Notes: generated by a model not told the origin, from the sequence alone. DNA of 64,000 bases from an uncultured Gammaproteobacteria bacterium (GCA_964344485.1 CAYFNF010000001.1:18335-82334), one strand, 5' to 3'. Shown: positions 3,214 through 45,451, numbered from the stretch's first letter. Program-made: numbers and translations.

Positions 3214-3217
3214 TAGT

Positions 3218-7657: not shown

Positions 7658-7814
7658 AATTTGTCTAATATTAGCGAAATAATTGTAAAAACAACCCATC
7701 GCAGGTTGATTTTTTATCTTTTTTTTGATATATATTGATGCGGCAAATCGCACGCAGTGCGGTTTTGTCGTCAGAAGGAGTGGATGCGCAAAATGCAGAT
7801 GAGGAGGCAGAACC

Positions 7815-26217: not shown

Positions 26218-27815
26218 TGCGCATCTTTGCGCGGTACGCGATAGACAGTCACTTCATCGTCAGTATACGCTTCTTTGAATCGTCCGTCAGCAACGATATT
26301 CTTTTTCATCGCAGTATGTTCGTGGTCGATAATAATGAACCGGGCATTAAAGTCTCCTTGAATGATCTCTAGTAGTTGATCTTCTTGTTTGCCGATCGTG
26401 ATATTCACCCATTTCCAGTAGAGGTCTCTATCATAGTTGTACATAAACGTTGGGTCCAGCCCTACAATGTAGCGAGCACGCGCTGCATTATAAAAGAGCA
26501 TTGGGAAATCGTCCCAGTCGTTGTGGAACACTACATCTCCTTTTGTGGCGTGGTCTCTCAGCCACTCCCCGAGTTGGTCAAAGTGATATACTGAGATACC
26601 CCGATGCAGCGATTCATGCGTTTTACGAGCTTCAGTGATCATGATCCCTGGAATGATAAATACAAAATAGACCAGCACTGCAGCGGTGATTCCTTGTAGG
26701 AACGTTTCGCCGATGATACTTTTTCTTGCTGAACTGATCGCGTGTTTCACTTGATCAAGCGCGCCACCCGCGTGAAGCGTTAGTGCAACAAAAATATAAC
26801 CCCATGGAATATAGTATTCAATATACCGTTGAGACTTTAGTGTAAAGACAAAGAAAATGATGGTCATGATAAGCGCAGTGATAGATGCAGCAGTCTGTTT
26901 CTTTATTTTTACAATAAAGACAATAATACTAATGATGATGAGCGACGACAGAATGATCGGAGAAGTGATAAGATTTTCGATCTCTGTTGGATACCATTCA
27001 CCTCCAACTCCGATGACCTCTTGATAATTGATTAAACCAATCTGCACCACTTGCTGCCAATAGAACTTTAAGTGATGCGGGAACGCTGGGTGGATAAGAA
27101 GGCCGGCAACGACACCAGCGCACGCAGCAAAGAACGGTGTGAAGTACGACCACAGTTGTCTTAATGACGGTAGTTTCTTACGGTCTTTTAGCATTGCTAG
27201 CAACCACGTCACTATTGAGTATATTCCAGCGACCACGAGCAAGAGAATGAATCCACCGTAGCTCCAGACGTAGAAGAATCCCAAGAGTATTAGAAGCCGA
27301 TGTTTTTTATGCGCTAATAATAGAAAGGCGGTGACTAAGAACAGGAATCCTACACTCGGGGCTTTCGCTAGCCCCATACGAAACGCAAATGAGGAGGTGA
27401 AGAGTAAGAAGAGCGTAAAGAGTGTTGCGTACTTAACGTGCAGAGACCGGAGCAAGATGTAGAACACCGTCAGAGTGGATGCAGCAAGGAGAACAGTCGC
27501 AACCTTCATTCCAATGAATTCATCCAAGAAGAGAATAAACGGGATCAGGAAGACGTGATACAGGAAATGATGATCGACAAATGCATCTTTTAGAGTGGTG
27601 AACTGCAGCCAGGGGAATTCAACAATTGCTTGCTGTCGTTTCATCATGATTTTTGTGATCTTCAAGTGGTAGAATGAGTCCGGATCAGAAAATACTGGCC
27701 CAGAACTCCATATTGCAAACGCAGTTATGGCAATGATAAATATCACGCACGCTCCAATCCATTCATGTTCGAGCCAGAACTTTTTTATTTGTAATGTTTT
27801 AGATTTTCGATACAT
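26181..27815 (-). CDS. GT-C-fold membrane glycosyltransferase-like protein
   Basis: Polytopic membrane protein plus C-terminal soluble domain. Start chosen at MYRKSK (27815). The ORF track extension to 27935 runs through a structured leader. Confidence 0.5.
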   Translation of the reverse strand: MYRKSKTLQIKKFWLEHEWIGACVIFIIAITAFAIWSSGPVFSDPDSFYHLKITKIMMKRQQAIVEFPWLQFTTLKDAFVDHHFLYHVFLIPFILFLDEFIGMKVATVLLAASTLTVFYILLRSLHVKYATLFTLFLLFTSSFAFRMGLAKAPSVGFLFLVTAFLLLAHKKHRLLILLGFFYVWSYGGFILLLVVAGIYSIVTWLLAMLKDRKKLPSLRQLWSYFTPFFAACAGVVAGLLIHPAFPHHLKFYWQQVVQIGLINYQEVIGVGGEWYPTEIENLITSPIILSSLIIISIIVFIVKIKKQTAASITALIMTIIFFVFTLKSQRYIEYYIPWGYIFVALTLHAGGALDQVKHAISSARKSIIGETFLQGITAAVLVYFVFIIPGIMITEARKTHESLHRGISVYHFDQLGEWLRDHATKGDVVFHNDWDDFPMLFYNAARARYIVGLDPTFMYNYDRDLYWKWVNITIGKQEDQLLEIIQGDFNARFIIIDHEHTAMKKNIVADGRFKEAYTDDEVTVYRVPRKDAHQNAAPEEATTE

Positions 27816-27931
27816 AGAATACCCCATATATTGAAATCTCCCGCTATCAAGCATGGGGCTAGCGGGAGTTTTCCCGCTAAACCTCCGTGGTGCGGGAAGC
27901 ACCTTGACCTTACCAAGGTCATTTTTCCCTG
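27816..27931 (-). promoter_or_regulatory. Structured 5' leader with mutually exclusive hairpins (TAGCGGGA / TCCCGCTA / TAGCGGGA) and possible SD sequestration
   Basis: On the minus strand TCCCGCTA can pair with either of two flanking TAGCGGGA copies (8 bp each). CCCCAT is complementary to ATGGGG adjacent to the start codon. An additional TGACCTT-GGT-AAGGTCA hairpin is present. Confidence 0.4.
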
Positions 27932-28996
27932 TCAAGCATTCTTCAACTCGTCTTTTAGAAAGTTGACATTTGGGATCGGTGATGGGTCTAGGTTGTTCAG
28001 AATTGCTAGGTATAACGAGATATAACTACCGATTAACAGCAGCTCTAATGCTTGATGTAGTTTATTCTTTCCCTGTAGTGAAAGTGTTGTTGATGGGATG
28101 TTGTTGTTTTGTACTACTTGATCAGTAATCTTGTGCCGCAGCTGATTTCTTTCGTGATAGAGATCGCTTGTAATGAACACAAAAAGTAATCGGTCTAAAG
28201 ACTCGCGTGCATGTACCAGCCCTTCAATTAAATGGTGGTTCATTTCTGGTATCGGAAAGCGCACAGCAAACTGTTTTGCGTTTTCGTTGATCTGATTTGT
28301 GAATACATGCGTGCTTCCTTCCAGGAATTCTGAGCTAACAAGTACTGGGAGCGTTTCATGCATTTTTTGTGCGAGCTGTTTTGCGGCGTTGTCATCGAGT
28401 GCAACTTCTGCTCCGTGCTGTTCGTGCAAGGAAGCGATATAGGCCGTTGCTTCTGCGATGTCATTATCTGTTAATGACAACACTCCAAGCGATGATAGCG
28501 CACCACAGATGCCCATAATCGAGTATCCTACTGCCATGCGCGGTTGCTTGCTTGGATTGTACTGTGGGTCAAAGATATACGCAGGAACGTTGTGCTCTTC
28601 AGCGAATTGTTGTAAGTCGCCACCTGTAGTCACTACAAATACTTTGTTGGTTTTGTCTAAAATTGTTTTACTCGCATTCACTGTCTCTTCGGTTGTTCCA
28701 GAGTAACTGGAGAGAATTGCCAGCGTTCGTTCATTTACTGTTCCTGGAATGTCGTAGTCATTAACGATTTGAATCGGAACAGTAATTTGATCTGAGAGCA
28801 GTGCTTGAATGACATGAATTCCCAGCGCTGATCCTCCCATGCCAAAGAGAACGATACGATCGATTTCGCTATAGTGTTCTGGGAAGTGAATTTGTGTTGA
28901 TGCAGACCACGCATCGGAACATTGCTTATCCAAGACCTCAATAGAGGAAAGCATGTTCTGTGAGTCTAGTTGTTGGATGTTCTTTTTTTCTAACAT
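27932..28996 (-). CDS. SIS-domain bifunctional phosphoglucose/phosphomannose isomerase-like protein
   Basis: LFGMGGSALGIHV SIS motif; ~350 aa, typical of the archaeal-type PGI/PMI family. Confidence 0.65.
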   Translation of the reverse strand: MLEKKNIQQLDSQNMLSSIEVLDKQCSDAWSASTQIHFPEHYSEIDRIVLFGMGGSALGIHVIQALLSDQITVPIQIVNDYDIPGTVNERTLAILSSYSGTTEETVNASKTILDKTNKVFVVTTGGDLQQFAEEHNVPAYIFDPQYNPSKQPRMAVGYSIMGICGALSSLGVLSLTDNDIAEATAYIASLHEQHGAEVALDDNAAKQLAQKMHETLPVLVSSEFLEGSTHVFTNQINENAKQFAVRFPIPEMNHHLIEGLVHARESLDRLLFVFITSDLYHERNQLRHKITDQVVQNNNIPSTTLSLQGKNKLHQALELLLIGSYISLYLAILNNLDPSPIPNVNFLKDELKNA

Positions 28997-29792: not shown

Positions 29793-30518
29793 ATGTCAGG
29801 ACACTCTAAATGGTCAACAATTAAGCGAAAAAAAGCAGCAACTGATGCAAAGAGAGGTGCGCTTTTTACAAAAGCAGTAAAGAATATTGCAGTAGCTGCG
29901 CGTCACGGCAAAGACCCAGAATCGAACGCTGCGTTGCGAACTGCGATTGCCCAAGCTCGGACTGTTAATCTTCCAAAGGATAAAATTGAAAATGCAATTT
30001 TAAAAGGCGCGGGAGAGCTTCCCGGAGCAGTGTACGAAGAGGTAGTCTATGAAGGATACGGCCCCGGAGGTGTGGCATTTGTTATTGAATGTGTCTCTGA
30101 TAATACTAATAGAACAGTGGCTGATGTGAGAAGCATGCTGACAAAGAGCGGTGGGTCCTTAGGAAACAGCGGGAGCGTGATGTACATGTTCAATCAGAAA
30201 GGTGTGGTGCGCATCTCCAAGGAAGACCTTACAGAGCACACTGCTGATGACGTTGAATTACTCGCCATTGATGCTGGAGCAGAGGATATTCAGTCTGAAG
30301 AAGAAGGTTTGACTATTACGGTTCCTCGAGAGCAGTTTCATTCCATGATTGATACATTTGAAAAGCAGCAAATACCCCTTGCATCGTCAGAACTGGAATG
30401 GATCACCGATACCATGATGCAACTTCCTCCAGAGGACGCTGCAAAGATCGAGAAGCTCATTGAAGCGTTGGAAGACAATGATGATGTGAATAATGTGTAT
30501 ACGAATGCTGACATTTAG
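29793..30518 (+). CDS. yebC: YebC/PmpR-family transcriptional regulator
   Basis: MSGHSKWSTIKRKKAATDAKRG is the hallmark YebC N-terminus. Confidence 0.9.
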   Translation: MSGHSKWSTIKRKKAATDAKRGALFTKAVKNIAVAARHGKDPESNAALRTAIAQARTVNLPKDKIENAILKGAGELPGAVYEEVVYEGYGPGGVAFVIECVSDNTNRTVADVRSMLTKSGGSLGNSGSVMYMFNQKGVVRISKEDLTEHTADDVELLAIDAGAEDIQSEEEGLTITVPREQFHSMIDTFEKQQIPLASSELEWITDTMMQLPPEDAAKIEKLIEALEDNDDVNNVYTNADI

Positions 30519-30521: not shown

Positions 30522-31010
30522 ATGAAGTGCTTGGGTATAGATCCAGGAATTGAGATAACAGGATTCGGTATATTAGAAGCGAATGGTTCTTCACAGCAAC
30601 TGATAGAGTACGGGGTGATCCGTACTTCTAAAGATGATAGTACGCCAGACCGTTTGCTTCAGCTGCACACAGATCTGATGCAAGTGCTACAGAAGCATCC
30701 AGACATTGCAGTAGCTGGAGTTGAGGAATTATTCTTTGCTAAGAATGCAAAGTCAGCATTCCAAGTTGGACAGGCGCGAGGAGTGATTCTACTCACTCTG
30801 GAGATGCATCACATCCTCATTCGAGAGGTGAAACCAGTTGAAGTAAAAGCTGCAATTGTCGGCTCAGGAAATGCAGATAAAAAGGAGGTGCAGAAAATGG
30901 TTCAATTAACATTTAATTTGGATACGCCACCACAACCTGACGATGCCGCAGATGCAATCGCAATCGCACTCTGCATGGCGTTTGATCAAGAATTGAAACA
31001 ACAACTATGA
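30522..31010 (+). CDS. ruvC: Crossover junction endodeoxyribonuclease RuvC
   Basis: LGIDPG N-terminus and DDAADAIAIALC C-terminal catalytic region. Confidence 0.9.
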   Translation: MKCLGIDPGIEITGFGILEANGSSQQLIEYGVIRTSKDDSTPDRLLQLHTDLMQVLQKHPDIAVAGVEELFFAKNAKSAFQVGQARGVILLTLEMHHILIREVKPVEVKAAIVGSGNADKKEVQKMVQLTFNLDTPPQPDDAADAIAIALCMAFDQELKQQL

Positions 31011-32587
31011 CACATTCCATATCATTACGCGTACTGATCTCTTCACTCATTGTATTTTTTGGAATGACCGCAGCGGTCCTTCCAGCAGCAGCACAAACAG
31101 CAGAGACGTCTGAAGAGATAGTAAGTGAGCAAGTAGTATTGAAGGCAAATGCTGGTAAGGACAGAAACGTTGTTGCAGGACGAACAGTGTTGTTTGATGC
31201 TGAGACTTCCACGATTCCAACAGACGAGGTATTAACATACTCGTGGGATTTTGGTGATGGACATACTTCCACTGGAATCGACGCCACACATATCTACTCT
31301 ACAAGTGGAACGTACCGCGTTACATTAACTGTTGAATCTTCCTCAGGCACTGCTAGTGAAGATAGCATTATCGTTTCAGTACAGGATACGTTAGTGGTGG
31401 TGATTACAGACCAGAGCGTCTCTGCGGAGCAAGTTGAGGATTTACAGGTTTCAGGACTGACCCAAGGAGTGTTGGTGGTACCAATTCGAGATACCGGTGT
31501 AAACCAGGAGTATCTGACGATTCAAAATCTCGCACAGCAGATCTCTGAGAATGAAGAGGATATTAGTTCAGCAAATATCATTGTTACGTGGACTGCTGGT
31601 AATGTGGGCTTAAACTCTCTTGTTGAGCTATCTCGTATTTCATCATTTGGAGATGGGTCGTTAGAGCAGTTCGGTTTCGGATCCAAAGCCATTATTGCGA
31701 TTAATGATCAGTCGTTAGTGACGAGCTTTAAGATTGCGCAGACTACGTTTCAGAGCGTGCAGCCGTCATACTTAGTGGTCTCTGACAGCAAGATCCTTGA
31801 TGATGTGATCCAAGCAGGTACTGCTGAGAATCTGCGAGAGAATTTGAGCAACAGCGATGCGGACTACCAAGTAATTACGGAATATACGGCTCGAGGCCTT
31901 GGAAACTTGAATCCGCTGAATTTCATGTCCTGGACTGTGAATTACATGATTAATAAAGGCGTGCCTATTAATTCGTTGTATTTGATTCTGATGCTACCGG
32001 TGATGGCAACGATTATCGCAGCCGGCCGACAGATGATTGGCATTAAGGCATTCGGTATTTTTGCGCCTACGGTCATCGCATTGTCGTTTCTAGCTACGGG
32101 CATCAAATACGGGGTGACACTGTTCATCGCGATTATCATTATTGGAACTATTGCGAGGTTAATAGCGCGGAAATTCCGATTGCTGTACCTCCCGCGCATG
32201 GCGATTGTACTTTCTATCTTGGCGCTGTCTATCTTTGCAATGTTCTTTGTTGGTGCTGTGTTCAATAAAACAGGCTTCATTGCAATTTCTATCTTCCCGA
32301 TTCTGATTATGACTGTGCTGACAGAGCATTTTGTGTCAGTGCAGATTGAGCAAGGGTACCGTACCGCAATTCGCATGACCCTAGAGACCCTGTTTCTGTC
32401 ATTAATTGGATTCTGGATTGGAGACTGGACCGTGTTCAAAACCATCATTCTTGCATATCCAGAGTTGATCCTCTTAACATTTGTAGTGAACTACCTCATG
32501 GGTAAATTCTCTGGACTGCGGTTAACTGAGTATCTTCGTTTTAAAGAAGTGTTTAAACACATGAAGGATGCTAAAGGGAAGAAATAA
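31007..32587 (+). CDS. Membrane protein: signal peptide, PKD domain, extracytoplasmic region, C-terminal 7-TM module
   Basis: WDFGDGHTS..YRVTLTV PKD signature; seven hydrophobic helices in the last ~230 aa; overlaps ruvC by 4 nt. Confidence 0.6.
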   Translation: MTHSISLRVLISSLIVFFGMTAAVLPAAAQTAETSEEIVSEQVVLKANAGKDRNVVAGRTVLFDAETSTIPTDEVLTYSWDFGDGHTSTGIDATHIYSTSGTYRVTLTVESSSGTASEDSIIVSVQDTLVVVITDQSVSAEQVEDLQVSGLTQGVLVVPIRDTGVNQEYLTIQNLAQQISENEEDISSANIIVTWTAGNVGLNSLVELSRISSFGDGSLEQFGFGSKAIIAINDQSLVTSFKIAQTTFQSVQPSYLVVSDSKILDDVIQAGTAENLRENLSNSDADYQVITEYTARGLGNLNPLNFMSWTVNYMINKGVPINSLYLILMLPVMATIIAAGRQMIGIKAFGIFAPTVIALSFLATGIKYGVTLFIAIIIIGTIARLIARKFRLLYLPRMAIVLSILALSIFAMFFVGAVFNKTGFIAISIFPILIMTVLTEHFVSVQIEQGYRTAIRMTLETLFLSLIGFWIGDWTVFKTIILAYPELILLTFVVNYLMGKFSGLRLTEYLRFKEVFKHMKDAKGKK

Positions 32588-34049
32588 TGTATTAGGCTTG
32601 AACGCTCGCAGCGCAATCTACTTGCGCGGAAATAAAAAGCGAGCTCGAGCTATTGCAGACAATAAAATAGACACAAAGAAGCGACTGAAGAAGCACGGCA
32701 TTGCTACTGCAGATATGTTGGCGGTGATTCGAGAGCGTAGCGAAGCCCGTGAGTTTGATTGGGAGTCGCTACCACCTAGTTTTGTGATTAAACCGAATCG
32801 TGGACTTGGCGGGGAAGGAATACTGATTATCTTTAACCGTCTGAAGAATGGGAATTGGTTAACTACTAATAAGCGGCAGCTAACTGCCGAGGATCTTTCT
32901 GTGCATGTTCATAATATTCTAGATGGGAATTATTCCTTGTTAAATACTCCAGATATTGCATTATTTGAAGCTCGTCTTTCTATTGATCCGTTGTATAAGC
33001 GGTTTTCAACGCAAGGCATTCCTGATATTCGAGTGGTGGTGTATAACAACGTGCCGGTGATGGCGATGCTGCGGGTCCCTACAAAGAAGTCGAACGGAAA
33101 AGCAAATTTAAACCAAGGTGGGCTCGGTATTGGTATTGATATCGCGACCGGGCTGACTACTCATGTGGTGACCAAGTCATTTCTATATGAAAAGGAGATT
33201 GAGCGGCATCCAGACACGAACCTGAGTTTACGGGGTGTACGTGTTCCGTATTGGTCTGAGATATTAAAGACTGCTGTTATTGCTTCGCGTGTTATTGGGC
33301 TGAAGTACGCTGGAGTAGATATTTCTGTGGATAAGAAGCGCGGCCCGGTGGTGCTGGAGTTAAACGCGCGACCAGGTTTGGGAATTCAAGTGGCGAACAT
33401 GGCTCCATTACAGGAGCGTCTTCGTCGCATTCATGGATTGAAAGTAGACACTCCAGAGCGTGGCATCTCGATTGCAAAAGAATTATTTGCCGGACGAATT
33501 GAGCAACGCATTGCGAGCATTACCGGACGACATATCATTGGCCTCATTGAGCCGATTACTCTGTTTGGGAAAGAGAAGGCGATAAAAAAGGTGCGGGCGA
33601 AGATTGATACTGGGGCAGATAATAGTTCTGTGGATACAGCGCTGGCGCGGGAGCTTGGATATGGAGACGCTATTGATCTGTTTGATTCGTATGATATTCC
33701 AGAGGAGTTAACACACGAAGAAGCAAAAGAGCGCGCTCGAGAGATAGAGAAGAATTTAATAAAAGAGAATCGTGATATTCAAGGCCTCTCTATTGTGAGT
33801 TCTTCGCATGGAGTGTCATTGCGTATTCGAATTAAGATGGCAGCGACGCTTTCTGGATATAAGATGAACATTGAACCCACAGTAGTTGACCGTTCACATT
33901 TGAAATATCCAATATTGGTTGGACGCCGCAATCTCGCGCACTTCCTGATTGATACAACAAAAGTTTCACTAAGAAAACGAAAGGTAGTGTCTAAGAAAAG
34001 CACTGCCAAAACCACAAAAGCAAGTACAGCAGGAAAAGCTGCAGTGTGA
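32568..34049 (+). CDS. RimK-related (alpha-L-glutamate-ligase-like) ATP-grasp fused to a C-terminal retropepsin-like aspartic peptidase domain
   Basis: N-terminal LGLNARSAIYLRGNKKRARAIADNKIDTKK and ATP-grasp core. C-terminal IDTGADNSSV is the DTGA aspartic-peptidase signature. Overlaps the upstream 7TM gene by 20 nt. Confidence 0.6.
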   Translation: MLKGRNNVLGLNARSAIYLRGNKKRARAIADNKIDTKKRLKKHGIATADMLAVIRERSEAREFDWESLPPSFVIKPNRGLGGEGILIIFNRLKNGNWLTTNKRQLTAEDLSVHVHNILDGNYSLLNTPDIALFEARLSIDPLYKRFSTQGIPDIRVVVYNNVPVMAMLRVPTKKSNGKANLNQGGLGIGIDIATGLTTHVVTKSFLYEKEIERHPDTNLSLRGVRVPYWSEILKTAVIASRVIGLKYAGVDISVDKKRGPVVLELNARPGLGIQVANMAPLQERLRRIHGLKVDTPERGISIAKELFAGRIEQRIASITGRHIIGLIEPITLFGKEKAIKKVRAKIDTGADNSSVDTALARELGYGDAIDLFDSYDIPEELTHEEAKERAREIEKNLIKENRDIQGLSIVSSSHGVSLRIRIKMAATLSGYKMNIEPTVVDRSHLKYPILVGRRNLAHFLIDTTKVSLRKRKVVSKKSTAKTTKASTAGKAAV

Positions 34050-34061: not shown

Positions 34062-34640
34062 ATGATTTCATACTTAAAAGGAACAATAAAAGAGGTAGAG
34101 AGCGATCAGTGCTTGGTGCTTGTACAGGACGTTGGGTATACGGTGTATGTGCCAACACGTGTGTTAGAGACATTTAAACCAGAGCAAGAAGTAGAGCTCT
34201 ATACCTATCAATATGTACGAGAGGACACATTGGACTTATATGGTTTTATAGAGAAAACTGATTTGAACTTATTTGATAAGCTTATCCATGTTTCTGGGGT
34301 AGGTGCACGCACAGGATTAACACTGCTATCGCAGTACGCAGCTGAGGACATTCGTCGTGCGATCATCCACGGAGATATTAGCTTGCTCTCGAGTGTATCT
34401 GGTGTAGGCAAGAAAACTGCTGAACGAATCGTCCTTGATTTAAAAGAGAGCATCGCGGTTGCGGCTGGGGTAGAAGCAGTCGAAGAGTCTGGTACTGTGA
34501 CTGAGGCTTCTGCTCTTGATGCGTTACTTGCACTCGGATACTCACAATCTGAAGCCCTCGCATCACTGAAAGGAATAGACCAGACAGCATCATTAGAAGA
34601 ACAGGTGCGTCAGGCATTGAAACAAGCATCAAAGGAGTAA
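34062..34640 (+). CDS. ruvA: Holliday junction DNA helicase RuvA
   Basis: OB-fold N-terminus, two HhH motifs (VSGVGARTGL, VSGVGKKTAERI) and C-terminal domain III. Confidence 0.9.
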   Translation: MISYLKGTIKEVESDQCLVLVQDVGYTVYVPTRVLETFKPEQEVELYTYQYVREDTLDLYGFIEKTDLNLFDKLIHVSGVGARTGLTLLSQYAAEDIRRAIIHGDISLLSSVSGVGKKTAERIVLDLKESIAVAAGVEAVEESGTVTEASALDALLALGYSQSEALASLKGIDQTASLEEQVRQALKQASKE

Positions 34641-34644: not shown

Positions 34645-35670
34645 ATGAAGTCTGCTGTTCAACAGATTACCGACCGACAGGTATGGGAGGAGTTTGCTGG
34701 AAGAATTGAGCCCTCCTCTTTTTTGCATTCTTGGGAGTGGGGAGAGATGCAGAAAGAGTACGGTCGCCCGATCTATCGCTTTGGATTATTTCAAGACGAC
34801 ATATTGGTCGCCGCATTTTTGTGTATTGTATTGCCGCTCCCTGCTGGAAGGACCTATCTGTTCTCCCCACATGGACCAATAGTAGCAGCATCGCAGACCG
34901 AACAGAAAATTTCTTTTTCTGAGATCGTGGCTAGTAAGGAAATTCAAGCGGTTATTGAACAGCATCAAGTAATCTTTTGGCGAGTAGAGCCTCTAGTGGA
35001 GTCAGTTGCTCAAGCACCGGAGTTACACCGCGTTGCTGATGTGGAGCCAGCTACTACCAGCGTGCTGAACCTCTCTGAAACTGAAGAAGATCTGCTAGCT
35101 GCAATGAAACAGAAGACGAGATACAATATCCGTTTAGCAGAGAAGAAAGGTGTACAAGTGGAGTTCATCACTATGCAAGATGAGCATACGTGGGACCATG
35201 TCATGAAGCAGCTCGGTCCGTTACTTGAAGAGACAAATCAGCGACACGGGATTCGCAGTCATCCAAACGCGTACTATGATGTCATGATTCGTCAGCTTGG
35301 TGATGCGCGCCTACTCGAATGTAGTGCTGCCACGCACCAAGGAGATCTTCTCGCTATGAACATCATGATTCAGTATCGAGATACGGTAACGTATTTACAC
35401 GGCGCAGCAACTCATCATAGAAAAAACGTTATGGCTCCGTACTTGTTACAGTGGCGAGCAATTCAGCGCGCAAAGAAACAAGGGTATCAGTACTATGACT
35501 TTTATGGCATCAGCCCTGAAGACAACACAACACACGCGTTGCAAGGTGTGACCCGTTTTAAGAAGGGTTTTGGCGGGAATACTGTACAATATCCTGGAAC
35601 GTACGAGTTTCCAATTTCCACAATTTGGTATAAGATATATCGTACTATTAAGAGACTTCGATCCATATGA
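34645..35670 (+). CDS. FemAB-family peptidyltransferase (FemX-like)
   Basis: KTRYNIRLAEKKGV motif and overall length match the FemAB family. Confidence 0.75.
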   Translation: MKSAVQQITDRQVWEEFAGRIEPSSFLHSWEWGEMQKEYGRPIYRFGLFQDDILVAAFLCIVLPLPAGRTYLFSPHGPIVAASQTEQKISFSEIVASKEIQAVIEQHQVIFWRVEPLVESVAQAPELHRVADVEPATTSVLNLSETEEDLLAAMKQKTRYNIRLAEKKGVQVEFITMQDEHTWDHVMKQLGPLLEETNQRHGIRSHPNAYYDVMIRQLGDARLLECSAATHQGDLLAMNIMIQYRDTVTYLHGAATHHRKNVMAPYLLQWRAIQRAKKQGYQYYDFYGISPEDNTTHALQGVTRFKKGFGGNTVQYPGTYEFPISTIWYKIYRTIKRLRSI

Positions 35671-36386
35671 TAGAAACCATTGTTATCGCAGCTGCAGGAA
35701 AGGGAGAACGCATGGAGCATCTGTCTAAGGAGCAGCCGAAACATCTAGTGAAAGTTGCGGGGAAGCCATTTTTACACTACGTATTGCAACAGGCAGATCG
35801 TGTTGGGTGTAAGAAGATGGTAGTCGTGGTTGGGTATATGGCTGACATGGTGCGAGAGTTTCTGGCTGAGCAACCGTACGATATTGTCGTAGTGGATCAG
35901 AACGAGGTGCTTGGCGACAAATACGGAACCGCGGCAGTCATTGAAGCTGTTGAACAAGAGGTGGGCGACCAACCGTTTGTTGTTCAGAATGGAGATTCGC
36001 TCTATTCAAAGAGTGTATTTGAGAGTGTTATGGTGGATGATGGAATGAATCGTGTCGTGGGTACTCACCATCCAGATCCTCAGCATTACGGTGTGATTGA
36101 AGCAGGCACTGACGGGTTGCTCGTTCGTATTGTAGAGAAACCAAAAGAGCCGATGTGCAATGTGATTAATCTAGGGATCTATCTATTTCAACCCGAGATT
36201 TTCTCTGCAGTGAAACAAGTAGAGAAATCACCGCGCGGAGAGTATGAAGTCATTGACGCAATTAATACTCTGGCAGATGAAAAAAAAGTAAAAGTCGAGC
36301 AGTTAATTGGCGAGTGGGTAGACCTTGGAACACCAGAGGACATTCATACCGTAGAGAAATTTTTAGTTAAGCACCATTATATTTAG
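35667..36386 (+). CDS. Sugar-phosphate nucleotidyltransferase
   Basis: N-terminal G-x-G-x-R ... PKHLVKVAGKP motif of NTP-transferases. Confidence 0.65.
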   Translation: MIETIVIAAAGKGERMEHLSKEQPKHLVKVAGKPFLHYVLQQADRVGCKKMVVVVGYMADMVREFLAEQPYDIVVVDQNEVLGDKYGTAAVIEAVEQEVGDQPFVVQNGDSLYSKSVFESVMVDDGMNRVVGTHHPDPQHYGVIEAGTDGLLVRIVEKPKEPMCNVINLGIYLFQPEIFSAVKQVEKSPRGEYEVIDAINTLADEKKVKVEQLIGEWVDLGTPEDIHTVEKFLVKHHYI

Positions 36387-36388
36387 GC

Positions 36389-37312
36389 ATGGGAAAGAAG
36401 ATAGTAACGATTGGTGGCGGGAAAGGGCAACCAGAGCTGTTGCGTTATTTAAAGCACTACGATCACTCCATTACTGCAGTAGTCACTATGATGGACGACG
36501 GAGGTTCTAGTGGTGAGATTCGGCAAGAGAAAGGGTTGTTGCCACCAGGTGATATACGGCGCTGTATTGGAGCGCTCTCTTCAGATCCGGAGTTGTTGGA
36601 TCGTTGGAATGAACGGCGTAAGGACGGACATGCAGTAGGAAACATTGAGATCATTGAAGAAGTAGAGAAGCGCGGCTCTTATGAACAAGCAGTTGACGCA
36701 CTATGCGAGCAGTACGGTGTGAGTACTGGCGTGCCCGCACATCAAGTCCTTCCTGTCACCGTAGATAGCGCAGAGTTAGTTGCTCGGCTAGAGAACAGCG
36801 AAGAGATTCACGGTGAATGCAATATCGATGTTCCTCAGCACGATGCGTCGTTACATATTCAGGATGTATGGCTAGAGCCAGATGCGCAGGTAACCGAACG
36901 TGTGAAACAGGCGTTGTTAGAAGCAGATTTGGTTGTGCTGTCTATGGGAGACCTGTACACGAGCGTCATTGCCAATTTATTAGTGCAAGGTGTTTCAGAA
37001 GCGATCTCTCAAAGCAATGCAGTAGTATCTTATGTATGTAACCGTTCCACTAAGCAAGGTGAGACGCATGATTTCTCTACCATGGAGTACTATACAGAAC
37101 TCTCCCGATATTTAGCTCCAGCGACAGTACAGTATATGATAGTAGACACCGGCGAAGTGGCAGTCCCGTCCACACATCAAGCTGTGCGCTTTGAAGCACT
37201 TCCGGCTGAAGTAGAAGTGATGCGCGCAGAGTTGTCACATAGCGACATGTTACACTTTGCTTCTGGGGAGAAAGCAGCAGCAGTAATCAATACATTATGC
37301 ACATCGTTATAG
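36389..37312 (+). CDS. YvcK/CofD-family (gluconeogenesis factor/UPF0052) protein
   Basis: IVTIGGGKG and TMMDDGGSSGEIR motifs. Confidence 0.75.
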   Translation: MGKKIVTIGGGKGQPELLRYLKHYDHSITAVVTMMDDGGSSGEIRQEKGLLPPGDIRRCIGALSSDPELLDRWNERRKDGHAVGNIEIIEEVEKRGSYEQAVDALCEQYGVSTGVPAHQVLPVTVDSAELVARLENSEEIHGECNIDVPQHDASLHIQDVWLEPDAQVTERVKQALLEADLVVLSMGDLYTSVIANLLVQGVSEAISQSNAVVSYVCNRSTKQGETHDFSTMEYYTELSRYLAPATVQYMIVDTGEVAVPSTHQAVRFEALPAEVEVMRAELSHSDMLHFASGEKAAAVINTLCTSL

Positions 37313-37916: not shown

Positions 37917-39074
37917 ATGAAGATATATTCAGTCACAGAGTTTAGAGAAGAAGTGAATGACCTCCTAGATGAGGTCACTGTTGCAATTCAGGGCGAGATC
38001 TCAGACATGAATATCTCTCAGAATCGGTTTGTGTGGTTCTCATTAGTGGATGATACTACTGTACTGAAGTGTTTCATGTTGACGTTTCAATTGAAGCAAC
38101 CACTCGAAGATGGGATGGAGATTCAGGCCATTGGTTCTCCCACGTTGTTTAAGAAAGGTCAGTTCGTATTTCGACCTCGGCAGATAGAGTTAGTAGGTGA
38201 GGGATCACTCAAGCGCGCATATGAGTTACTCAAGAAAAAGCTAGAGAAAGAGGGGCTGTTCGATGAGACACGAAAGCGAGCACTACCGCGGTTCTCTGAA
38301 AAGATTGGCTTGATTACTAGCAAAGACGCAGCTGCATATACAGACGTACTACGAATTTTGAAAAACCGCTGGGCCGGGCTAGATATTCGTCATATGAACG
38401 TTCAAGTGCAGGGCGCTAAGGCAACGAACAGTATTGTCAACGCGCTCACTGAGTTGAATGAGTCACAACAGGATTTAGATTGTATTATTCTCACACGTGG
38501 AGGTGGTTCATTAGAAGATTTGCAAGCGTTTAATACTGAAGAAGTAGTGCGAGCGATCTATGCGTCAAAGATCCCTGTAGTGTGTGGTGTTGGCCATGAA
38601 CGGGACGTCACACTCTCTGATTTAGTTGCAGATGTTCGAGCCTCGACCCCATCGAATGCAGCTGAAATTGTGGCACCAGACAAACAGGACGTAATTGCGG
38701 AGCTAGAGTATATGAAAGAACGCTGCGTCACGAGTGTAGAGTCTGTGGTGAAGCAGTATCAGGACGGTGTTCAGCAAGCAGTATCCGTGTTAGAGAGCAA
38801 GATACATGAGCAGCACAGTCGCTTTGAGACGCTCCAGTATGCATTTCTCTCGAAGTTTCAGGAGTATCAAGCGCAGATTCAATTGCGCAAGGAGCAGATT
38901 GGCCACATGCAGCAGCTGATCCACTCATACAACCCACTGCATGTGTTAAAACGCGGATATACATTGACAAAAGACTCAAAAGGCAGAATGATTACTACTG
39001 CGAAAAAAGCAAAGCAACAGAAGCAGATCACTACGGTGTTTCGTGATGGCTCTGTAGAATCTACAGTTGATTAA
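37917..39074 (+). CDS. xseA: Exodeoxyribonuclease VII large subunit
   Basis: N-terminal OB fold, GLITSKDAAAYTDVL and LTRGGGSLEDLQAFN catalytic-domain motifs, C-terminal helical region. Confidence 0.85.
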   Translation: MKIYSVTEFREEVNDLLDEVTVAIQGEISDMNISQNRFVWFSLVDDTTVLKCFMLTFQLKQPLEDGMEIQAIGSPTLFKKGQFVFRPRQIELVGEGSLKRAYELLKKKLEKEGLFDETRKRALPRFSEKIGLITSKDAAAYTDVLRILKNRWAGLDIRHMNVQVQGAKATNSIVNALTELNESQQDLDCIILTRGGGSLEDLQAFNTEEVVRAIYASKIPVVCGVGHERDVTLSDLVADVRASTPSNAAEIVAPDKQDVIAELEYMKERCVTSVESVVKQYQDGVQQAVSVLESKIHEQHSRFETLQYAFLSKFQEYQAQIQLRKEQIGHMQQLIHSYNPLHVLKRGYTLTKDSKGRMITTAKKAKQQKQITTVFRDGSVESTVD

Positions 39075-40098: not shown

Positions 40099-40099
40099 T

Positions 40100-41116: not shown

Positions 41117-41122
41117 TTGTCA

Positions 41123-41151
41123 TTGACATAACCGGTAAATACACGTACTCT
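41123..41151 (+). promoter_or_regulatory. Sigma70-like promoter TTGACA-N17-TACTCT with a very short leader upstream of xseB
   Basis: Read directly; the -10 ends ~10 nt before the ATG at 41162. Confidence 0.4.
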
Positions 41152-41161
41152 AGTATTAAAT

Positions 41162-41407
41162 ATGGCTAAAAAACAGGGAAAAAAACGAACAACTGCTGGA
41201 GCAAAGTCATCCAAGACGTTTGCAAACCGCTTTGAAGAGTTGGAAAAGATTGTTGAGTCTTTTGACTCCGAAGAGCTGGATGTAGATGCAAGCGTTAAGC
41301 AATTCGAAAAGGGCTTGAAGCTTGCAGAAGAGTTAAAAGAAACATTAGAATCCGTAGAGAATAAGATTGAAACTCTGAAGAAGAAATATCACGTGGAGGA
41401 AGAATAA
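41162..41407 (+). CDS. xseB: Exodeoxyribonuclease VII small subunit
   Basis: 81 aa; FEELEKIVESF..FEKGLKLAEEL matches the XseB helical core. Confidence 0.75.
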   Translation: MAKKQGKKRTTAGAKSSKTFANRFEELEKIVESFDSEELDVDASVKQFEKGLKLAEELKETLESVENKIETLKKKYHVEEE

Positions 41408-41421
41408 GTAACAACACCCCC

Positions 41422-42270: not shown

Positions 42271-43543
42271 GGAGTATAAGAAAATTGTTATTACCGGCAC
42301 CAAAGGCAAGACCACGATTGTCCGGTTGCTTGATCATGTGCTACTGGAGCTAGGGTTCCACACGTTGAGAGTGGATACTGACGGGCACTTTAAGGACGGA
42401 AAGCAACGTAGTTCTTATGAAGAGTCGCGAAAGTATTGGGGTATGGTGCCGAACGTCTGCCCAGGACGTTACCTCTATGATTTGGAGGGATTGCCAGTGA
42501 ATAGAACTGTAGTATTGCTAGAAGCAGCAATTGGATCCTCTTCATTGCGTGGTCTCGGGTATTCGTATCATCAAATTGGGGTGTTTACGAATGTATTTGA
42601 GGATCATATTACAAAGGTGCGAATCAAGAATAGAAAAGACATTTACGACGCAAAACGGTTTGCATTTACACGACTCAGAAAGGACGGGCAGTTTATTTAC
42701 AATTCCAGTGATTCGTTTTTGGCAAAACAGTTACAGCAAGAAATCATTGGCCGTCGAATGATAGCAGTAGGGGAGGAATTGAAATATGTACAACCGCAGT
42801 CGTTCTTTAAAGGCGGCAATGTTCATTTTTTAATTGAAGGATCACGCATTTTCTACATGACTGCAAAAACAAAGCGACTGCTCGTAGACACTGCTACTAT
42901 TCCATTGTCGTTTAACGGAATGTTTGTACCGAATAACTACAACATCGCGTTCGCATTAGGAGTGTTGTATGCGCATTTTGGGTCTACACAGTTCTTTAGA
43001 AAATTACATAAAATTCGAGCAGCGTTAGAATCTTATACGTTGGACACTGCCGGTGGAAGACTGTTGTTATTACAGTCCAAGAATAAAGACCTGTCTGTAT
43101 TAATTGATTTTGCGCATGAAGCGCGATCATTACGGGAAGTGGGTAAACTGGCAAAGAAGCTGAGTAGCAACAGAGTCATTGGAGTATTACGGCTCGATCC
43201 ATCTCGAACAAACAAGGAGATTCAGCAAGCTGCACGTGCAATCAAAACTGCGTATGATGAGATTATTATCTACGATAAGGTAGACGGCGTACAGCAAAAA
43301 AAGAGCAGAACTGTTGCCGAGGGGAAGCGCAGAACCGTTGGTCAGACCGCGCGTCTATTTGTACGAGAGCTAAAGCGTGCAGGGCACAAGAATGTGCAAA
43401 TGGAGTTACGCGAGCAACGTGCATTTAACAGCGCAGTACAGCAAGCCGAACCCGGAGACGTAATAGTGTATATTGGTCGCGGAGAGGATCACAGGAAAAC
43501 GTACGATGTTGTTAAGAAGAAGCTTAGGAGCATTCGATCATGA
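42260..43543 (+). CDS. Mur-ligase-family amide ligase (CphA M-domain / PgsB-like), stand-alone
   Basis: ITGTKGKTT P-loop of the Mur-ligase central domain at the N-terminus; overlaps the upstream gene. Confidence 0.6.
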   Translation: MIDEEYKKIVITGTKGKTTIVRLLDHVLLELGFHTLRVDTDGHFKDGKQRSSYEESRKYWGMVPNVCPGRYLYDLEGLPVNRTVVLLEAAIGSSSLRGLGYSYHQIGVFTNVFEDHITKVRIKNRKDIYDAKRFAFTRLRKDGQFIYNSSDSFLAKQLQQEIIGRRMIAVGEELKYVQPQSFFKGGNVHFLIEGSRIFYMTAKTKRLLVDTATIPLSFNGMFVPNNYNIAFALGVLYAHFGSTQFFRKLHKIRAALESYTLDTAGGRLLLLQSKNKDLSVLIDFAHEARSLREVGKLAKKLSSNRVIGVLRLDPSRTNKEIQQAARAIKTAYDEIIIYDKVDGVQQKKSRTVAEGKRRTVGQTARLFVRELKRAGHKNVQMELREQRAFNSAVQQAEPGDVIVYIGRGEDHRKTYDVVKKKLRSIRS

Positions 43544-44499
43544 TAAAAGCTTGCGTACTCATCGGACTAGGCTGTGGACGCCGAAATCATCCCTTCGTAA
43601 AAGGGAGTATTTATGAAGGAGCGTATAGAGTATTATCACAACAAGCTGAGGAGCAGGGGGTGCAGTTCTATCGATGCAAGAATAAATCATTTAGTTTTAC
43701 AACTGGCCGTTTTTCTAGTGGATGGACATTGAGAAATAATAAATGGGTTCGTGTGAAAAATATTAAACCAGATGTGTTACTGGATAAATCAACAGCTATT
43801 TATCGGTCCGAGACGTTTCGTCATAAAGTGAGGATGTCAACCTATGCGCCAATCGTGAATTCGTTAGACTTTACTATGCTATTTGGAAGTAAGATGTTTA
43901 CGTACACAATATTCAGTAAGTTTATGAAAAAAAGCATTCGCGTAACGAATGCGTCAGAATTGCGGGATGCGGCGAAACAGTTAAAGACCAATCGTATAGT
44001 GGTAAAGCCGGTGTACGGGTCTTCTGGAAAGGATATTTCAATAGTGACTAAGGATAAAATTCGCACTGTCCAAATTAATCGCCCCATGATCGCACAGGAG
44101 TTTATCGATAGTTCAAAAGGCATTAAGGGGCTGACAGATACTGTTCATGATCTTCGTTTAGTATTTGAAAGTGATTCATTCATTTATAGTTATATCCGTA
44201 CGCCAGTGAAAGGCTCGCTATTAGCAAATGTCGCCCAAGGAGGATCTATGAAGATAGTGACTAAGAAAGAGATGCCGAAAAAAGTATGGGATATCATTAA
44301 GGAAGTTCATGCGTCATTACGACCGTATTTTCCAGGTATCTATACTATAGATCTTATGTTTGATAAACAGCAGCAACCATGGATCGTCGAGTTAAATACC
44401 ATGCCGGGTATCTATTTTTATGAGGATCAAAAGAAATGGCAAGATCGGTTTTATGCAGCACAGATAAAGATATTAAAGAATGCAGTAAATAAGAGATAG
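43540..44499 (+). CDS. ATP-grasp protein (YheC/YheD- or TTL-like), paralog 1
   Basis: IVVKPVYGSSGKDISIV and LANVAQGGS motifs. Confidence 0.45.
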   Translation: MIKACVLIGLGCGRRNHPFVKGSIYEGAYRVLSQQAEEQGVQFYRCKNKSFSFTTGRFSSGWTLRNNKWVRVKNIKPDVLLDKSTAIYRSETFRHKVRMSTYAPIVNSLDFTMLFGSKMFTYTIFSKFMKKSIRVTNASELRDAAKQLKTNRIVVKPVYGSSGKDISIVTKDKIRTVQINRPMIAQEFIDSSKGIKGLTDTVHDLRLVFESDSFIYSYIRTPVKGSLLANVAQGGSMKIVTKKEMPKKVWDIIKEVHASLRPYFPGIYTIDLMFDKQQQPWIVELNTMPGIYFYEDQKKWQDRFYAAQIKILKNAVNKR

Positions 44500-44500
44500 A

Positions 44501-45451
44501 ATGAAAGAACAAATCATCGGGTTTATTTATAACGATTCGGATTGGGAGCGGACTGTACCGTTTCAAAAGCCCGCGATGCGGGAGTCATATGAGCGCATGT
44601 ACGATCGCGCGGTACAGAAATACGGCATGCGGATCTACCGTATGAGTAAGGAATGGTATAAGGACGGCGCGTTTCATCGTGCATGGACATGGAAAGACGG
44701 GAAATGGATAAAAGTGCGACAACGCATCAAGGCAGACATCTACTATGACAAGATGTCCACTACGTATCAAAGCATGTCTTTTCAGCAGCAGTTCTATCAA
44801 GAGAATCGCGTGGTGAATGCGCCAGAGTTTGATTTAGTTGCTTCAGATAAGTTATTAACCTATCTTGCGTGCGGTGATATCATGACCAAGACCTACGTTG
44901 TGAACTCTACAGTTGATTTAAAGAATGCACTTGCGAAGATATCAACAAAGAAAGCAGTATTGAAACCACGGCTTGGGTATGGGGGCGCTGGTATTCAGAT
45001 AACTAGCAAAGCACAGTTACTAAAGAAGCGAGTCTCTGGGAGCTATATAGTGCAACCGTATGTCGACACATCAGGTGGCGTGCCAGGGTTGTTTAAGGGA
45101 ACGCATGATTTTCGGGTGATATTAGCAAACGATAAGCCAGTCATGGCGTATATCCGCACTCCAGCGCCAGGTACTGAGTTGTGCAACATCTCTTTAGGAG
45201 GAGGGATCTGTTTTGTGCCAGTATCTAAGATGCCAAAGACAGTAAAGCCATTACTACGGAGAATGTCAGAAGCGTTTGCGGTCTTTCCGCAGAAGTTTTA
45301 CGGAGCAGATTTTTACTTTCAGAACGGTAAACCACAGTTAGTAGAGATAAATACTAAACCGAACATGGTCTATTTCTTGGATAACTTACAGCAAGAGGCC
45401 AAGATGCACGACAACGTACTGTCATATATGCAGTCAATTATTCAATCATGA
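44501..45451 (+). CDS. ATP-grasp protein (YheC/YheD- or TTL-like), paralog 2
   Basis: Paralog of 43540..44499 (VLKPRLGYGGAGIQIT, NISLGGG). Confidence 0.45.
   Translation: MKEQIIGFIYNDSDWERTVPFQKPAMRESYERMYDRAVQKYGMRIYRMSKEWYKDGAFHRAWTWKDGKWIKVRQRIKADIYYDKMSTTYQSMSFQQQFYQENRVVNAPEFDLVASDKLLTYLACGDIMTKTYVVNSTVDLKNALAKISTKKAVLKPRLGYGGAGIQITSKAQLLKKRVSGSYIVQPYVDTSGGVPGLFKGTHDFRVILANDKPVMAYIRTPAPGTELCNISLGGGICFVPVSKMPKTVKPLLRRMSEAFAVFPQKFYGADFYFQNGKPQLVEINTKPNMVYFLDNLQQEAKMHDNVLSYMQSIIQS

Follow-up and report, generated by a model that had tools for sequence, protein, structure and literature searches.

A fused ATP-grasp ligase and retropepsin-like peptidase with a seven-helix membrane partner: a conserved Patescibacterial variant of RloABC

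Genes for 7TM_transglut membrane proteins (PF14402), ATPgrasp_ST ligases (PF14397) and Zn_protease or 'RimB-like' proteins (PF05618) were reportedly predicted by Iyer et al. in 2009 to form a neighbourhood. An earlier note on the DNA considered here called this trio functionally uncharacterised, but that description is outdated. The RloABC system of P. aeruginosa and gammaproteobacteria was studied by Lormand et al. (mBio 2025; PMC12239564), who report that in Pseudomonas it has effects on how cells tolerate osmotic stress, on their shape, on biofilms and on sensitivity to beta-lactams, that RloA cleaves polyglutamate, and that mutations at K46, D48, R114 and R137 abolish the cleavage. Of the RloB matches in their published distribution, 96% come from Proteobacteria (PMC12239564). 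A Shewanella mutant in an RloB homolog hypervesiculates. The other system close to this locus is RimK-RimB (with RimA), which polyglutamylates ribosomal protein S6 (PMC11957791, PMC7343187) and in which RimB acts as a dimeric peptidase that trims polyglutamate.

The window, the whole stretch of 64,000 nucleotides that was analysed, carries two genes between ruvC and ruvA that bring all three families together. Their parts and the genes that matter to the argument are these:

29793..30518, plus strand: yebC (TACO1/YebC family; Pfam Transcrip_reg, 5e-56), which opens the conserved yebC-ruvC-7TM-fusion block
30522..31010, plus strand: ruvC (Pfam RuvC, 1.6e-43; NCBIfam equivalog, 190.7 bits, cutoff 163)
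31007..32587, plus strand: RloB-like membrane protein of 526 aa, with signal peptide, PKD domain, alpha/beta mid-domain, seven-helix (7TM) module and basic cytosolic tail
31007..31093, plus strand: its signal peptide or N-terminal anchor, residues 1-29, ending ...LPAAA|QT (hydropathy peaks at 2.19 over residues 9-27, and the model has a helix at 3-22)
31139..31384, plus strand: its extracytoplasmic PKD domain, residues ~45-126, with WDFGDGHTS (PKD_4, 4e-22, residues 47-120)
31388..31891, plus strand: its extracytoplasmic alpha/beta mid-domain, residues ~128-295 (flavodoxin/CheY-like fold; no Pfam family)
31913..32584, plus strand: its 7TM_transglut (RloB-type) seven-helix module and amphipathic basic C-terminal helix, residues 303-526 (PF14402, 105.7 bits against a cutoff of 25)
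32568..34049, plus strand: fusion protein of 493 aa, an RloC-type ATP-grasp ligase joined to an RloA/RimB-like retropepsin domain
32616..33488, plus strand: its ATP-grasp ligase domain, residues ~17-307 (ATPgrasp_ST, 2e-65, residues 17-289; TIGR02291, 3e-81)
33525..33965, plus strand: its retropepsin-like (clan AA) peptidase domain, residues ~320-466 (PF05618, 4.7e-7; RloA3, 9e-8)
33606..33617, plus strand: catalytic motif D347-T-G-A350 of the peptidase, preceded by K345 (K345, D347, G349 and A350 invariant in 54 homologs)
33969..34046, plus strand: its Lys-rich disordered C-terminal tail, residues 468-493 (pLDDT below 50; not conserved)
34062..34640, plus strand: ruvA (TIGR00084, 187.6 bits), 12 nt after the fusion gene
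43540..45451, plus strand: a tandem pair of free-standing ATP-grasp genes, 43540-44499 and 44501-45451 (matched in tblastn by proteins encoded downstream of the fusion in loci L027 and L003)

The order of genes from ruvC to ruvA is as the earlier note gave it, and so are the junctions. The ruvC stop and the start of the membrane protein's frame share an ATGA (an overlap of 4 nt), and the stop codon of the latter, at 32585-32587, lies inside the fusion gene, which starts at 32568 and so overlaps it by 20 nt. That start is backed by an N-terminus, MLKxRNKVLG[MLI]NARS, conserved among homologs. In line with the noted absence of ruvB, none of the window's reading frames contains a Walker A motif of the RuvB type. 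The base composition of the module is that of its flanks.

What does not hold is the idea that the module was inserted locally and breaks up a ruv operon. The module is a conserved, lineage-wide Patescibacterial variant of RloABC, not a one-off. The fusion of ligase and peptidase occurs in all 80 of the reference loci fetched, with a 7TM gene directly 5' in 79 of them. The two genes overlap in 32 of 78 loci, and most others lie no more than 25 nt apart. The gene directly 5' of the 7TM gene is ruvC in 52 of the 71 loci with enough flank, and yebC, present in 43/80, stands just 5' of ruvC wherever gene order was read. The block from yebC to the fusion is thus old. It is different with ruvA: its position after the fusion is real here, but the adjacency is lineage-specific and recurs only in L001, the closest relative, whereas four other loci have ruvA 3.5-6 kb downstream. 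The window's genes at 43540-45451, 30-37% identical to proteins encoded downstream in L027 and L003, may be displaced members of the cluster, homologs directly following the fusion in many other Patescibacteria. The fusion turns out to be the norm of the phylum. The PKD ectodomain is confined to some lineages: in most loci (69/79) the 7TM protein is bare, about 218 aa long and with no ectodomain.

The protein encoded at 31007-32587 is an RloB-type seven-helix membrane protein, with its ectodomain facing outward and its conserved residues and basic C-terminal tail in the cytoplasm. The 7TM_transglut profile matches residues 325-515 (3.6e-30), and the C-terminal part of RloB matches at 2e-21. 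Hydropathy and the AlphaFold model (pLDDT 84.5) both give the seven helices that had been claimed, plus the N-terminal signal or anchor helix, whose putative cleavage site is placed by an AXA-like motif. Lys and Arg number 17 on the inside loops and 3 on the outside, which by the positive-inside rule gives an N-out/C-in topology, and the invariant residues of the 7TM part cluster at the cytosolic face. I took the locus L086 on the Legionella adelaidensis plasmid NZ_LR134414.1 as the canonical rloABC-type reference. Its inactive-transglutaminase/7TM protein aligns with the window's protein over the 7TM part only, all helices and the cytosolic tail included (30% identity, 243 aa, 1e-25), while the ectodomain shows no similarity to that of this Legionella RloB-like protein. 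A PKD domain, a beta-sandwich with its WDFGDG motif, does stand in place of the inactive transglutaminase, as had been proposed; no transglutaminase family matches. The earlier note did not mention the second, unannotated alpha/beta domain of the ectodomain. This mid-domain has a flavodoxin/CheY-like fold and is not a transglutaminase.

The N-terminal half of the fusion is, as claimed, a RimK-related ATP-grasp, of the TIGR02291 (RloC) type. It matches PF14397 over the full length of the profile, from position 6 to 277 out of 278, with 221.1 bits (cutoff 31.4), and it is clearly homologous to the 'alpha-L-glutamate ligase-like protein' of the Legionella reference, the two being 40% identical across 310 aa (2e-73). 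At 272.7 bits the top family, TIGR02291 (3.4e-81), stays under the curated cutoff of 314.2, and on the other half of the protein the models for RloA and RimB miss theirs by far, so these matches speak for homology to Rlo rather than for equal specificity. RimK family models miss their cutoffs as well (TIGR00768, 50.7 bits against 143.4; PRK10446, 25.5 against 331), only the C-terminal Mg/ATP motif aligning in that comparison, and BLASTP finds no similarity between the ligase and the window's own RimK-like gene. By structure, RimK comes out best (Foldseek on the model, 1.3e-10), ahead of ArgX/LysX, the best match being RimK in complex with RpsF, and RimK can be aligned with it at the motifs DIR, NLxxGG and GVD...ELNxxPG. 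The catalytic and ATP/Mg-binding residues are intact: K75, D153, N180, D251, E264 and N266 are invariant among 54 homologs, at least 90% of which also retain R155.

The same polypeptide continues, as had been noticed, into a clan AA domain with an intact DTGA. PF05618 covers residues 325-465 with 30.2 bits against a cutoff of 27, so all three families of the neighbourhood score above their gathering thresholds. The domain has what clan AA proteins of PF05618 have, a half-barrel that carries a single D-T/S-G-A in each chain, followed towards the C-terminus by G-R-x-D/N-L (here VGRRNL, residues 451-456, with G452 and L456 invariant). Such half-barrel peptidases must form homodimers to be active. 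DTGA or DSGA is kept in 120 of the 120 top homologs of the fusion, and K345, D347, G349, A350, R419, R442 and G452 are invariant among the 54. The peptidase profile matches crystal structures of RloA, 9g58 (5.5e-9) and 9g59 (3.4e-8), and also 2pma (8.6e-7). Its K-x-D...R...R aligns to K26, D28, R94 and R117 of 9g58, with 23 residues between the two arginines in both; by a constant offset of 20, these probably correspond to K46, D48, R114 and R137 of P. aeruginosa RloA. Identity to the Legionella RloA-like protein is 27% over 146 aa (3e-4). The RloA1-3 models give 21-32 bits (cutoffs 210-280) and the RimB model NF052261 20.6 (cutoff 200). The domain is modelled as beta-rich, with block-mean pLDDT of about 84-95 over residues 321-460. 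Homologs span ~94% of the fusion and are typically about 465 aa long. The fusion is cytoplasmic, and its peptidase keeps the catalytic DTGA and the Lys and Arg residues that bind polyglutamate in RloA.

The locus therefore resembles RloABC in its RloC-type ligase, its RloB-type 7TM module, its retropepsin fold with DTGA and conserved K/R residues, and the tight coupling of its genes in one operon. It differs in having the peptidase at the C-terminus of the ligase, whereas RloA is a separate, secreted protein with a signal peptide and a disulfide; in an ectodomain of PKD and flavodoxin-like domains (absent in most Patescibacteria) where RloB has an inactive transglutaminase; in gene order, B-(C~A) rather than A-B-C; in yebC-ruvC upstream and, among relatives, extra ATP-grasp genes and a class A penicillin-binding protein (PBP); and in its host, a probable monoderm Patescibacterium. 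It departs in the same way from the usual context of PF14402, the inactive transglutaminase being missing and PF14397 and PF05618 lying in a single polypeptide. The fused peptidase has neither cysteines nor a signal peptide, so it would act in the cytoplasm, not in the periplasm, and with the Pseudomonas enzyme at a different site, Pseudomonas genetics may not carry over. In its location and its lack of cysteines it resembles cytosolic RimB. RimK-RimB likewise pairs, physically, a cytosolic ligase of the ATP-grasp glutamate-ligase fold with a cytosolic retropepsin-like endopeptidase, but as a complex, not a covalent fusion, with a ligase outside the TIGR02291/ATPgrasp_ST branch, and with no counterpart of the obligate 7TM partner; here, conversely, there is no RimA-like EAL protein.

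I propose, at somewhat better than an even chance, that the two genes encode a two-protein, three-module relative of RloABC. Its most likely function would be to make and trim, docked at the membrane, an acidic peptide that resembles polyglutamate and is linked to the envelope. The fusion would dock where the 7TM protein faces the cytosol, as a dimer or higher oligomer, since one DTGA per peptidase chain means that chains must pair to build the active site. Spending ATP, the ligase would extend an acceptor or a free chain by alpha-linked acidic residues, of which glutamate is the likeliest, and the built-in peptidase would trim or release that chain, as RimB does for RimK, setting the length or the turnover of the product. 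The 7TM protein would be the scaffold and possibly the route by which product or signal reaches the envelope. Co-transcription and translational coupling with yebC-ruvC would reflect inherited operon structure, not shared function. Counted towards the envelope link were the ATP-grasp ligases and class A PBP that trail the module in many lineages, the nearby FemAB, the Rlo mutant phenotypes and the Shewanella hypervesiculation. Against the proposal, a search among the window's proteins for a polyacidic tract or tail as a candidate substrate found none, apart from one weak case at 60580-61020.

An alternative view, possible but unlikely, is that the module modifies membrane-bound precursors of the cell wall, or envelope polymers: on these the ligase and the extra ATP-grasps would build or lengthen a peptide, for the 7TM protein to present or translocate and the peptidase to edit. 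What would differ is the acceptor, an envelope precursor in place of a free or protein-bound polyglutamate chain. The neighbours speak for this view. In about 57 of 80 loci the fusion gene is trailed by one to three ATP-grasp genes of types also present in the window, 48 of 85 loci have a class A PBP no more than ~6 kb downstream, GT4 and BacA adjoin the cluster in Moranbacteria, and FemAB, an LCP transferase and a Mur-ligase-like gene lie on the same strand of the window; Rlo phenotypes also point to peptidoglycan homeostasis. Yet the argument is wholly one of neighbourhood. Some trailing ATP-grasp genes may be housekeeping Ddl, to judge by their Dala_Dala_lig_C matches, and the window itself has no class A PBP, while ruvA through xseA sets its ligase array apart from the pair. 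Moreover, retropepsin-like RloA and RimB cut alpha-linked polyglutamate, not stem peptides. A transmembrane sensor, whose PKD and alpha/beta domains bind an external ligand or a host-cell surface while the 7TM part switches a ligase-peptidase acting on a cytosolic protein, is less probable still. The ectodomain does vary by lineage as in modular receptors (transglutaminase-like, PKD with alpha/beta, or none), and the conserved 7TM residues do face the cytosol, but sensing by an ectodomain cannot be the core function where the 7TM protein is so often bare, and the module has no recognisable signalling output domain.

It is harder to believe that the fusion acts as RimK and RimB do, polyglutamylating and trimming the C-terminus of a cytosolic protein such as S6, with the membrane protein a mere anchor. 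The two activities are cytosolic and joined, in keeping with a RimK and RimB that bind each other; the closest structure is that of RimK with RpsF; and an L10-like ribosomal gene precedes the pair in Dojkabacteria-like loci. Nevertheless, the ligase is of the RloC type, well under the RimK cutoff and dissimilar to the window's RimK-like gene, and Rim systems offer no parallel to a 7TM partner that is nearly obligate. Least probable of all is a link to Holliday junctions, by which modification or regulation of YebC, RuvC or RuvA would explain the conserved adjacency. The frequency of ruvC and yebC upstream and the overlap of the ruvC stop with the 7TM start speak for it; against it, the linkage is absent from Dojkabacteria-like loci and from the proteobacterial locus examined, no domain of the module has a function related to nucleic acids, and none of RuvC, YebC and RuvA ends in an acidic tract. 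Strings of co-directional genes with tiny gaps are typical of the window, which makes adjacency weak evidence.

On the reading I prefer, that of an RloABC relative, the locus bears on the family at large. A natural fusion of ligase and peptidase, always paired with a 7TM protein, argues that the three activities share one product and one complex, and it offers biochemistry a simpler, two-protein system. A peptidase on the cytoplasmic side, at least in this lineage, constrains models in which it meets its substrate outside the membrane. The published distribution of RloB (PMC12239564) missed a large Patescibacterial group.

With an RloB-type partner and yet a cytoplasmic peptidase joined to its ligase, the fused form could be an evolutionary and mechanistic link from RimK/RimB to RloABC, and, with the trailing ATP-grasps and the class A PBP, may constitute a conserved Patescibacterial pathway by which an acidic peptide polymer or a peptide modification is made, trimmed and brought to the envelope, a suggestion I offer as speculation, possible but unlikely. 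Such a pathway is not known to have been described in these reduced-genome organisms. That genomes so small keep this module and several amide ligases beside cell-wall genes suggests a function that matters there.

The genes for the seven-helix membrane (7TM) protein and for the fusion of an ATP-grasp ligase with a retropepsin-like peptidase lie exactly where the earlier note had put them, in the layout ruvC-7TM-fusion-ruvA and with both claimed overlaps. The first, between ruvC and the 7TM gene, is 4 nt (ATGA, on inspection of the junction sequence), and the second, between the 7TM stop codon and the fusion ORF, is 20 nt.

Features of the window, by window position
22429-24069, reverse strand, ORF of 546 aa
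24118-26217, DUF2079 membrane protein
26181-27935, reverse strand, ORF of 584 aa, clearly a multi-pass membrane protein
27932-28996, reverse strand, bact-PGI gene
30522-31010, ruvC, the ORF upstream of the 7TM gene
31007-32587, 7TM protein, 526 aa (ORF call)
32568-34049, fusion, 493 aa (ORF call)
34062-34640, ruvA, 12 nt after the fusion
34645-37312, forward strand, FemAB-family peptidyltransferase, nucleotidyltransferase, and CofD/YvcK-family protein, after ruvA, at junctions that overlap or leave at most 4 nt
39067-45451, forward strand, six amide-ligase genes (family matches)
45448-47036, forward strand, LCP (LytR-CpsA-Psr) glycopolymer transferase, then Cas4/AddB-like nuclease, directly after the ligase array

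The fusion start at 32568 is supported, because homologs keep the N-terminal motif MLKxRNKVLG[MLI]NARS. Where some homologs have an internal methionine, the window protein has leucine, and therefore no alternative start. No intergenic gap in the stretch from yebC to xseA exceeds 12 nt, and four junctions overlap. Promoter-like sites lie 5' of the HAD gene and of yebC, in a scan whose totals are not above shuffle expectation. The claimed absence of ruvB holds: a search of all frames of the 64-kb window for a RuvB-type Walker A motif came up empty, and no RuvB emerged when neighbouring ORFs were scanned for families. With the genes at 34645-37312, one co-directional string interleaves recombination genes and cell-wall-type genes. 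The 584-aa and 546-aa ORFs have no Pfam match.

The N-terminal half of the fusion is indeed a RimK-related ATP-grasp. Residues 17-289 match ATPgrasp_ST (2e-65), and the top NCBIfam family is TIGR02291, "alpha-L-glutamate ligase-like protein" (3.4e-81), at 272.7 bits, below the cutoff of 314.2. In a structure model (pLDDT 83.7), the ATP-grasp domain is followed by a short low-confidence linker (310-318), a beta-rich domain (320-466), and an unconserved, Lys-rich, disordered tail. The nearest structure to the ligase half by Foldseek is RimK (1.3e-10), then ArgX/LysX, PsnB, and cyanophycin synthetase, and the Mg/ATP motifs align with those of RimK. The C-terminus is of the clan-AA type, also as claimed: residues 325-465 score 30.2 bits with PF05618, whose cutoff is 27, and give weak matches to the models of RloA1-3 and RimB. 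A profile of this domain matches the structures 9g58 and 9g59, identified as RloA in PMC12239564, and Legionella 2pma (5.5e-9 to 8.6e-7).

Among 54 homologs, K75, D153, N180, D251, E264, and N266 of the ligase are invariant and R155 is nearly so (at least 90%); K345, D347 (of DTGA), G349, A350, R419, R442, and G452 of the peptidase are likewise invariant. The pattern K-x-D...R...R aligns to RloA residues, with an R-R spacing of 23 residues in both, and mutation of the corresponding K/D/R/R residues of RloA abolishes polyglutamate cleavage (PMC12239564). Judged by sequence, then, the catalytic and acidic-substrate-binding residues of the fusion are intact.

In the 7TM protein, Pfam recognizes PKD_4 (4e-22, residues 47-120) and 7TM_transglut (3.6e-30, residues 325-515); the NCBIfam model of RloB covers just the C-terminal 195 residues (2e-21). 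An AlphaFold model built with 50 homologs (pLDDT 84.5) has, in order, an N-terminal helix (residues 3-22), a PKD sandwich, a mid-domain, the seven membrane helices that had been claimed, and a basic amphipathic C-terminal helix. The first helix is read from the model as a signal peptide or anchor, with an AAA/Q site. The mid-domain (residues 128-295, encoded at 31388-31891) has no Pfam family; it is predicted well, as an alpha/beta domain of CheY/flavodoxin-like fold, with invariant D135, T196, K227, and R296. The predicted loops carry 17 Lys and Arg residues inside vs 3 outside, and the topology is therefore N-out/C-in. Most invariant residues of the protein (R341, Q342, R384, P396, E440, Q446, E460, R505, E508, R511, F512) are at or near the cytoplasmic face.

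A typical three-gene locus, on a plasmid of Legionella adelaidensis, encodes a peptidase, an inactive-transglutaminase/7TM protein, and an alpha-L-glutamate-ligase-like protein. The window's ATP-grasp domain is 40% identical to that ligase (310 aa, 2e-73), its 7TM part 30% identical to the 7TM protein (243 aa, 1e-25; the ectodomains are not similar), and its peptidase domain 27% identical to the peptidase over the whole domain length (3e-4). By these similarities, all three modules are homologous to the Rlo trio: RloA (retropepsin-like peptidase), RloB (7TM protein), and RloC (ATP-grasp ligase). The Legionella peptidase as annotated seems to lack a signal peptide, but an in-frame upstream methionine supplies one, and the protein is a normal secreted RloA. 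The window's module differs from the trio in architecture, gene order, and the location of the peptidase. Periplasmic RloA has a conserved disulfide that cytosolic RimB lacks, and the fusion's peptidase domain has no cysteines; ligase and peptidase both lie in the cytoplasm. The window's ATP-grasp domain also shares 38.6% identity with an archaeal RloC-type ligase, encoded on a plasmid of Halobacterium sp. DL1 (CP007061.1, 106116-107015).

The trio can no longer be called functionally uncharacterised, as the earlier note had it: RloABC was first described in 2025 (PMC12239564). The RloA enzymes, secreted dimers of retropepsin-like type, cut runs of at least 8 glutamates. Loss of all three is lethal under hypo-osmotic conditions and impairs shape, biofilm formation, and beta-lactam tolerance; deletion of rloB or rloC suppresses these defects, which implies that the product of RloB and RloC needs processing by RloA (PMC12239564). 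RimB, the cytosolic relative, binds RimK, stimulates it, and shortens polyglutamate tails (PMC11957791), and a Shewanella mutant in an RloB homolog hypervesiculates (PMC12096838). Matches to RloB are 96% proteobacterial (PMC12239564). That paper does not mention Patescibacteria, neither it nor PMC11957791 mentions a ligase-peptidase fusion, and literature searches on CPR/Patescibacteria or the fused form (family accessions, "Patescibacteria + RimK") found no paper.

The nearest homologs of both proteins are in Candidatus Kerfeldbacteria and other Patescibacteria. A scan that took a single genome from each species turned up at least 591 loci with relatives. Of these, 80 were fetched, mostly labelled as Patescibacteria MAGs, about a third otherwise (e.g. 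Bdellovibrionales, Fimivivens, plain "bacterium"). Ligase and peptidase share one polypeptide in all 80. The 7TM gene directly precedes the fusion in 79, and the two overlap in 32 of 78 loci, most others being 25 nt or less apart. The pairing is near-obligate, and chance adjacency of unrelated neighbours is rejected on these counts. The best 120 fusion matches span 451-688 aa and all have DTGA or DSGA. The peptidase domain, searched against cluster representatives, gave 385 matches (E <= 1e-3): fusions of about 460-500 aa, stand-alone proteins (about 120-190 aa), and a small number with longer architectures. Three longer fusion homologs (P0070, P0084, P0099; 675-688 aa) have an additional PF04794 (YdjC-like) domain; others reach 854 (P0288) and 916 aa (P0249), and the fusion ORFs of loci L053 and L055 are 800 and 957 aa. 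Duplicated peptidase modules, as extra stand-alone retropepsin-like genes (about 178 aa, no signal peptide), lie 3' of the fusion in L002 (~3856-4784), L013 (~6560-7090), and L072 (~2867-3313).

In 69 loci the 7TM protein consists of the bare module alone, at about 218 aa; the form with PKD and mid-domain, found in 10, is chiefly from Kerfeldbacteria-, Falkowbacteria-, and Kuenenbacteria-type lineages. Bare-7TM loci often encode a separate PKD-containing protein just 5' of yebC. PKD matches 5' of yebC occur in L029, L036, L041, L042, L045, L049, L057, and L077, and L084 has a separate LTD + PKD protein there (6197-7678).

The earlier note saw an insertion interrupting the ruv operon. It is not one, and recent horizontal insertion is rejected: the base composition of the 7TM-fusion region equals that of its flanks, and the order yebC-ruvC-7TM-fusion is conserved across distant Patescibacterial lineages. 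The gene directly 5' of the 7TM gene is ruvC in 52 of the 71 loci with enough flank, and yebC is found in 43 of 80. Dojkabacteria-like loci (L065-L068, L071, L076, L078, L080) have an L10-like ribosomal protein gene 5' of the pair and not yebC-ruvC. Only in the closest relative, L001, does ruvA directly follow the fusion; in four other loci it is 3.5-6 kb further on. What does follow, in about 57 of 80 loci, is one to three stand-alone ATP-grasp genes, 22-41% identical to window ORFs at 39067-45451. A class A PBP (transglycosylase + transpeptidase) lies within about 6 kb 3' of the module in 48 of 85 loci, L081-L085 included; tblastn with a downstream PBP gave no match in the 64-kb window or L001. 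One annotated example reads yebC-ruvC-PKD7TM-fusion-ATPgrasp-ATPgrasp-PBP-SMC, and the Moranbacteria order is ruvB...yebC-ruvC-7TM-fusion-ATPgrasp-GT4-PBP-BacA. Four Falkowbacteria-/Kuenenbacteria-type loci (L081, L082, L083, L085) have 4-8 tandem T4SS_pilin genes and a bact-PGI gene 5' of yebC (upstream 0-5.5 kb); these loci and the window have the bact-PGI and DUF2079 genes in common.

Between the pair and the six-ligase array of the window lie ruvA, femAB, the nucleotidyltransferase, cofD, the HAD hydrolase, and xseA. The array opens with two tandem ATP-grasp genes matching the cyanophycin synthetase G-domain (1e-60 and 2.5e-73). Third comes a RimK-family-like gene and fourth a Mur-ligase that matches the M-domain of cyanophycin synthetase (6.5e-42); a further pair of ATP-grasp genes closes the array. 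It resembles a split cyanophycin-synthetase-like assembly; all scores are far below family cutoffs. The fusion ligase has no BLASTP similarity to the window's RimK-like gene and is not its recent paralog.

I propose that the 7TM protein is the docking site of the fusion, which would oligomerise so that two DTGA domains form one active site. The ligase would add acidic residues, probably glutamate, at the expense of ATP; the peptidase would trim the ligated chain, by analogy with RimB and RimK; and the 7TM protein may be a scaffold or conduit to the envelope. A search of the window for an encoded polyacidic substrate gave none convincing.

Other views compete with this one. The module might modify a cell-wall precursor, or a ribosomal protein in the manner of RimK. 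It might be a sensor driven by the ectodomain, an idea weakened by the fact that most relatives have no ectodomain. A link to recombination has adjacency in its favor and nothing else. Anti-phage defence is rejected, as PADLOC matches neither protein.

The earlier reading was, overall, of a real finding, and largely right in interpretation. The module does not make a category of its own; it is a variant of the recently characterised Rlo kind and is common in one large phylum that has been studied poorly. It is of value as a two-protein, fused version of the Rlo system, and for the conserved, ligase-rich context, adjoining cell-wall genes, that it reveals.
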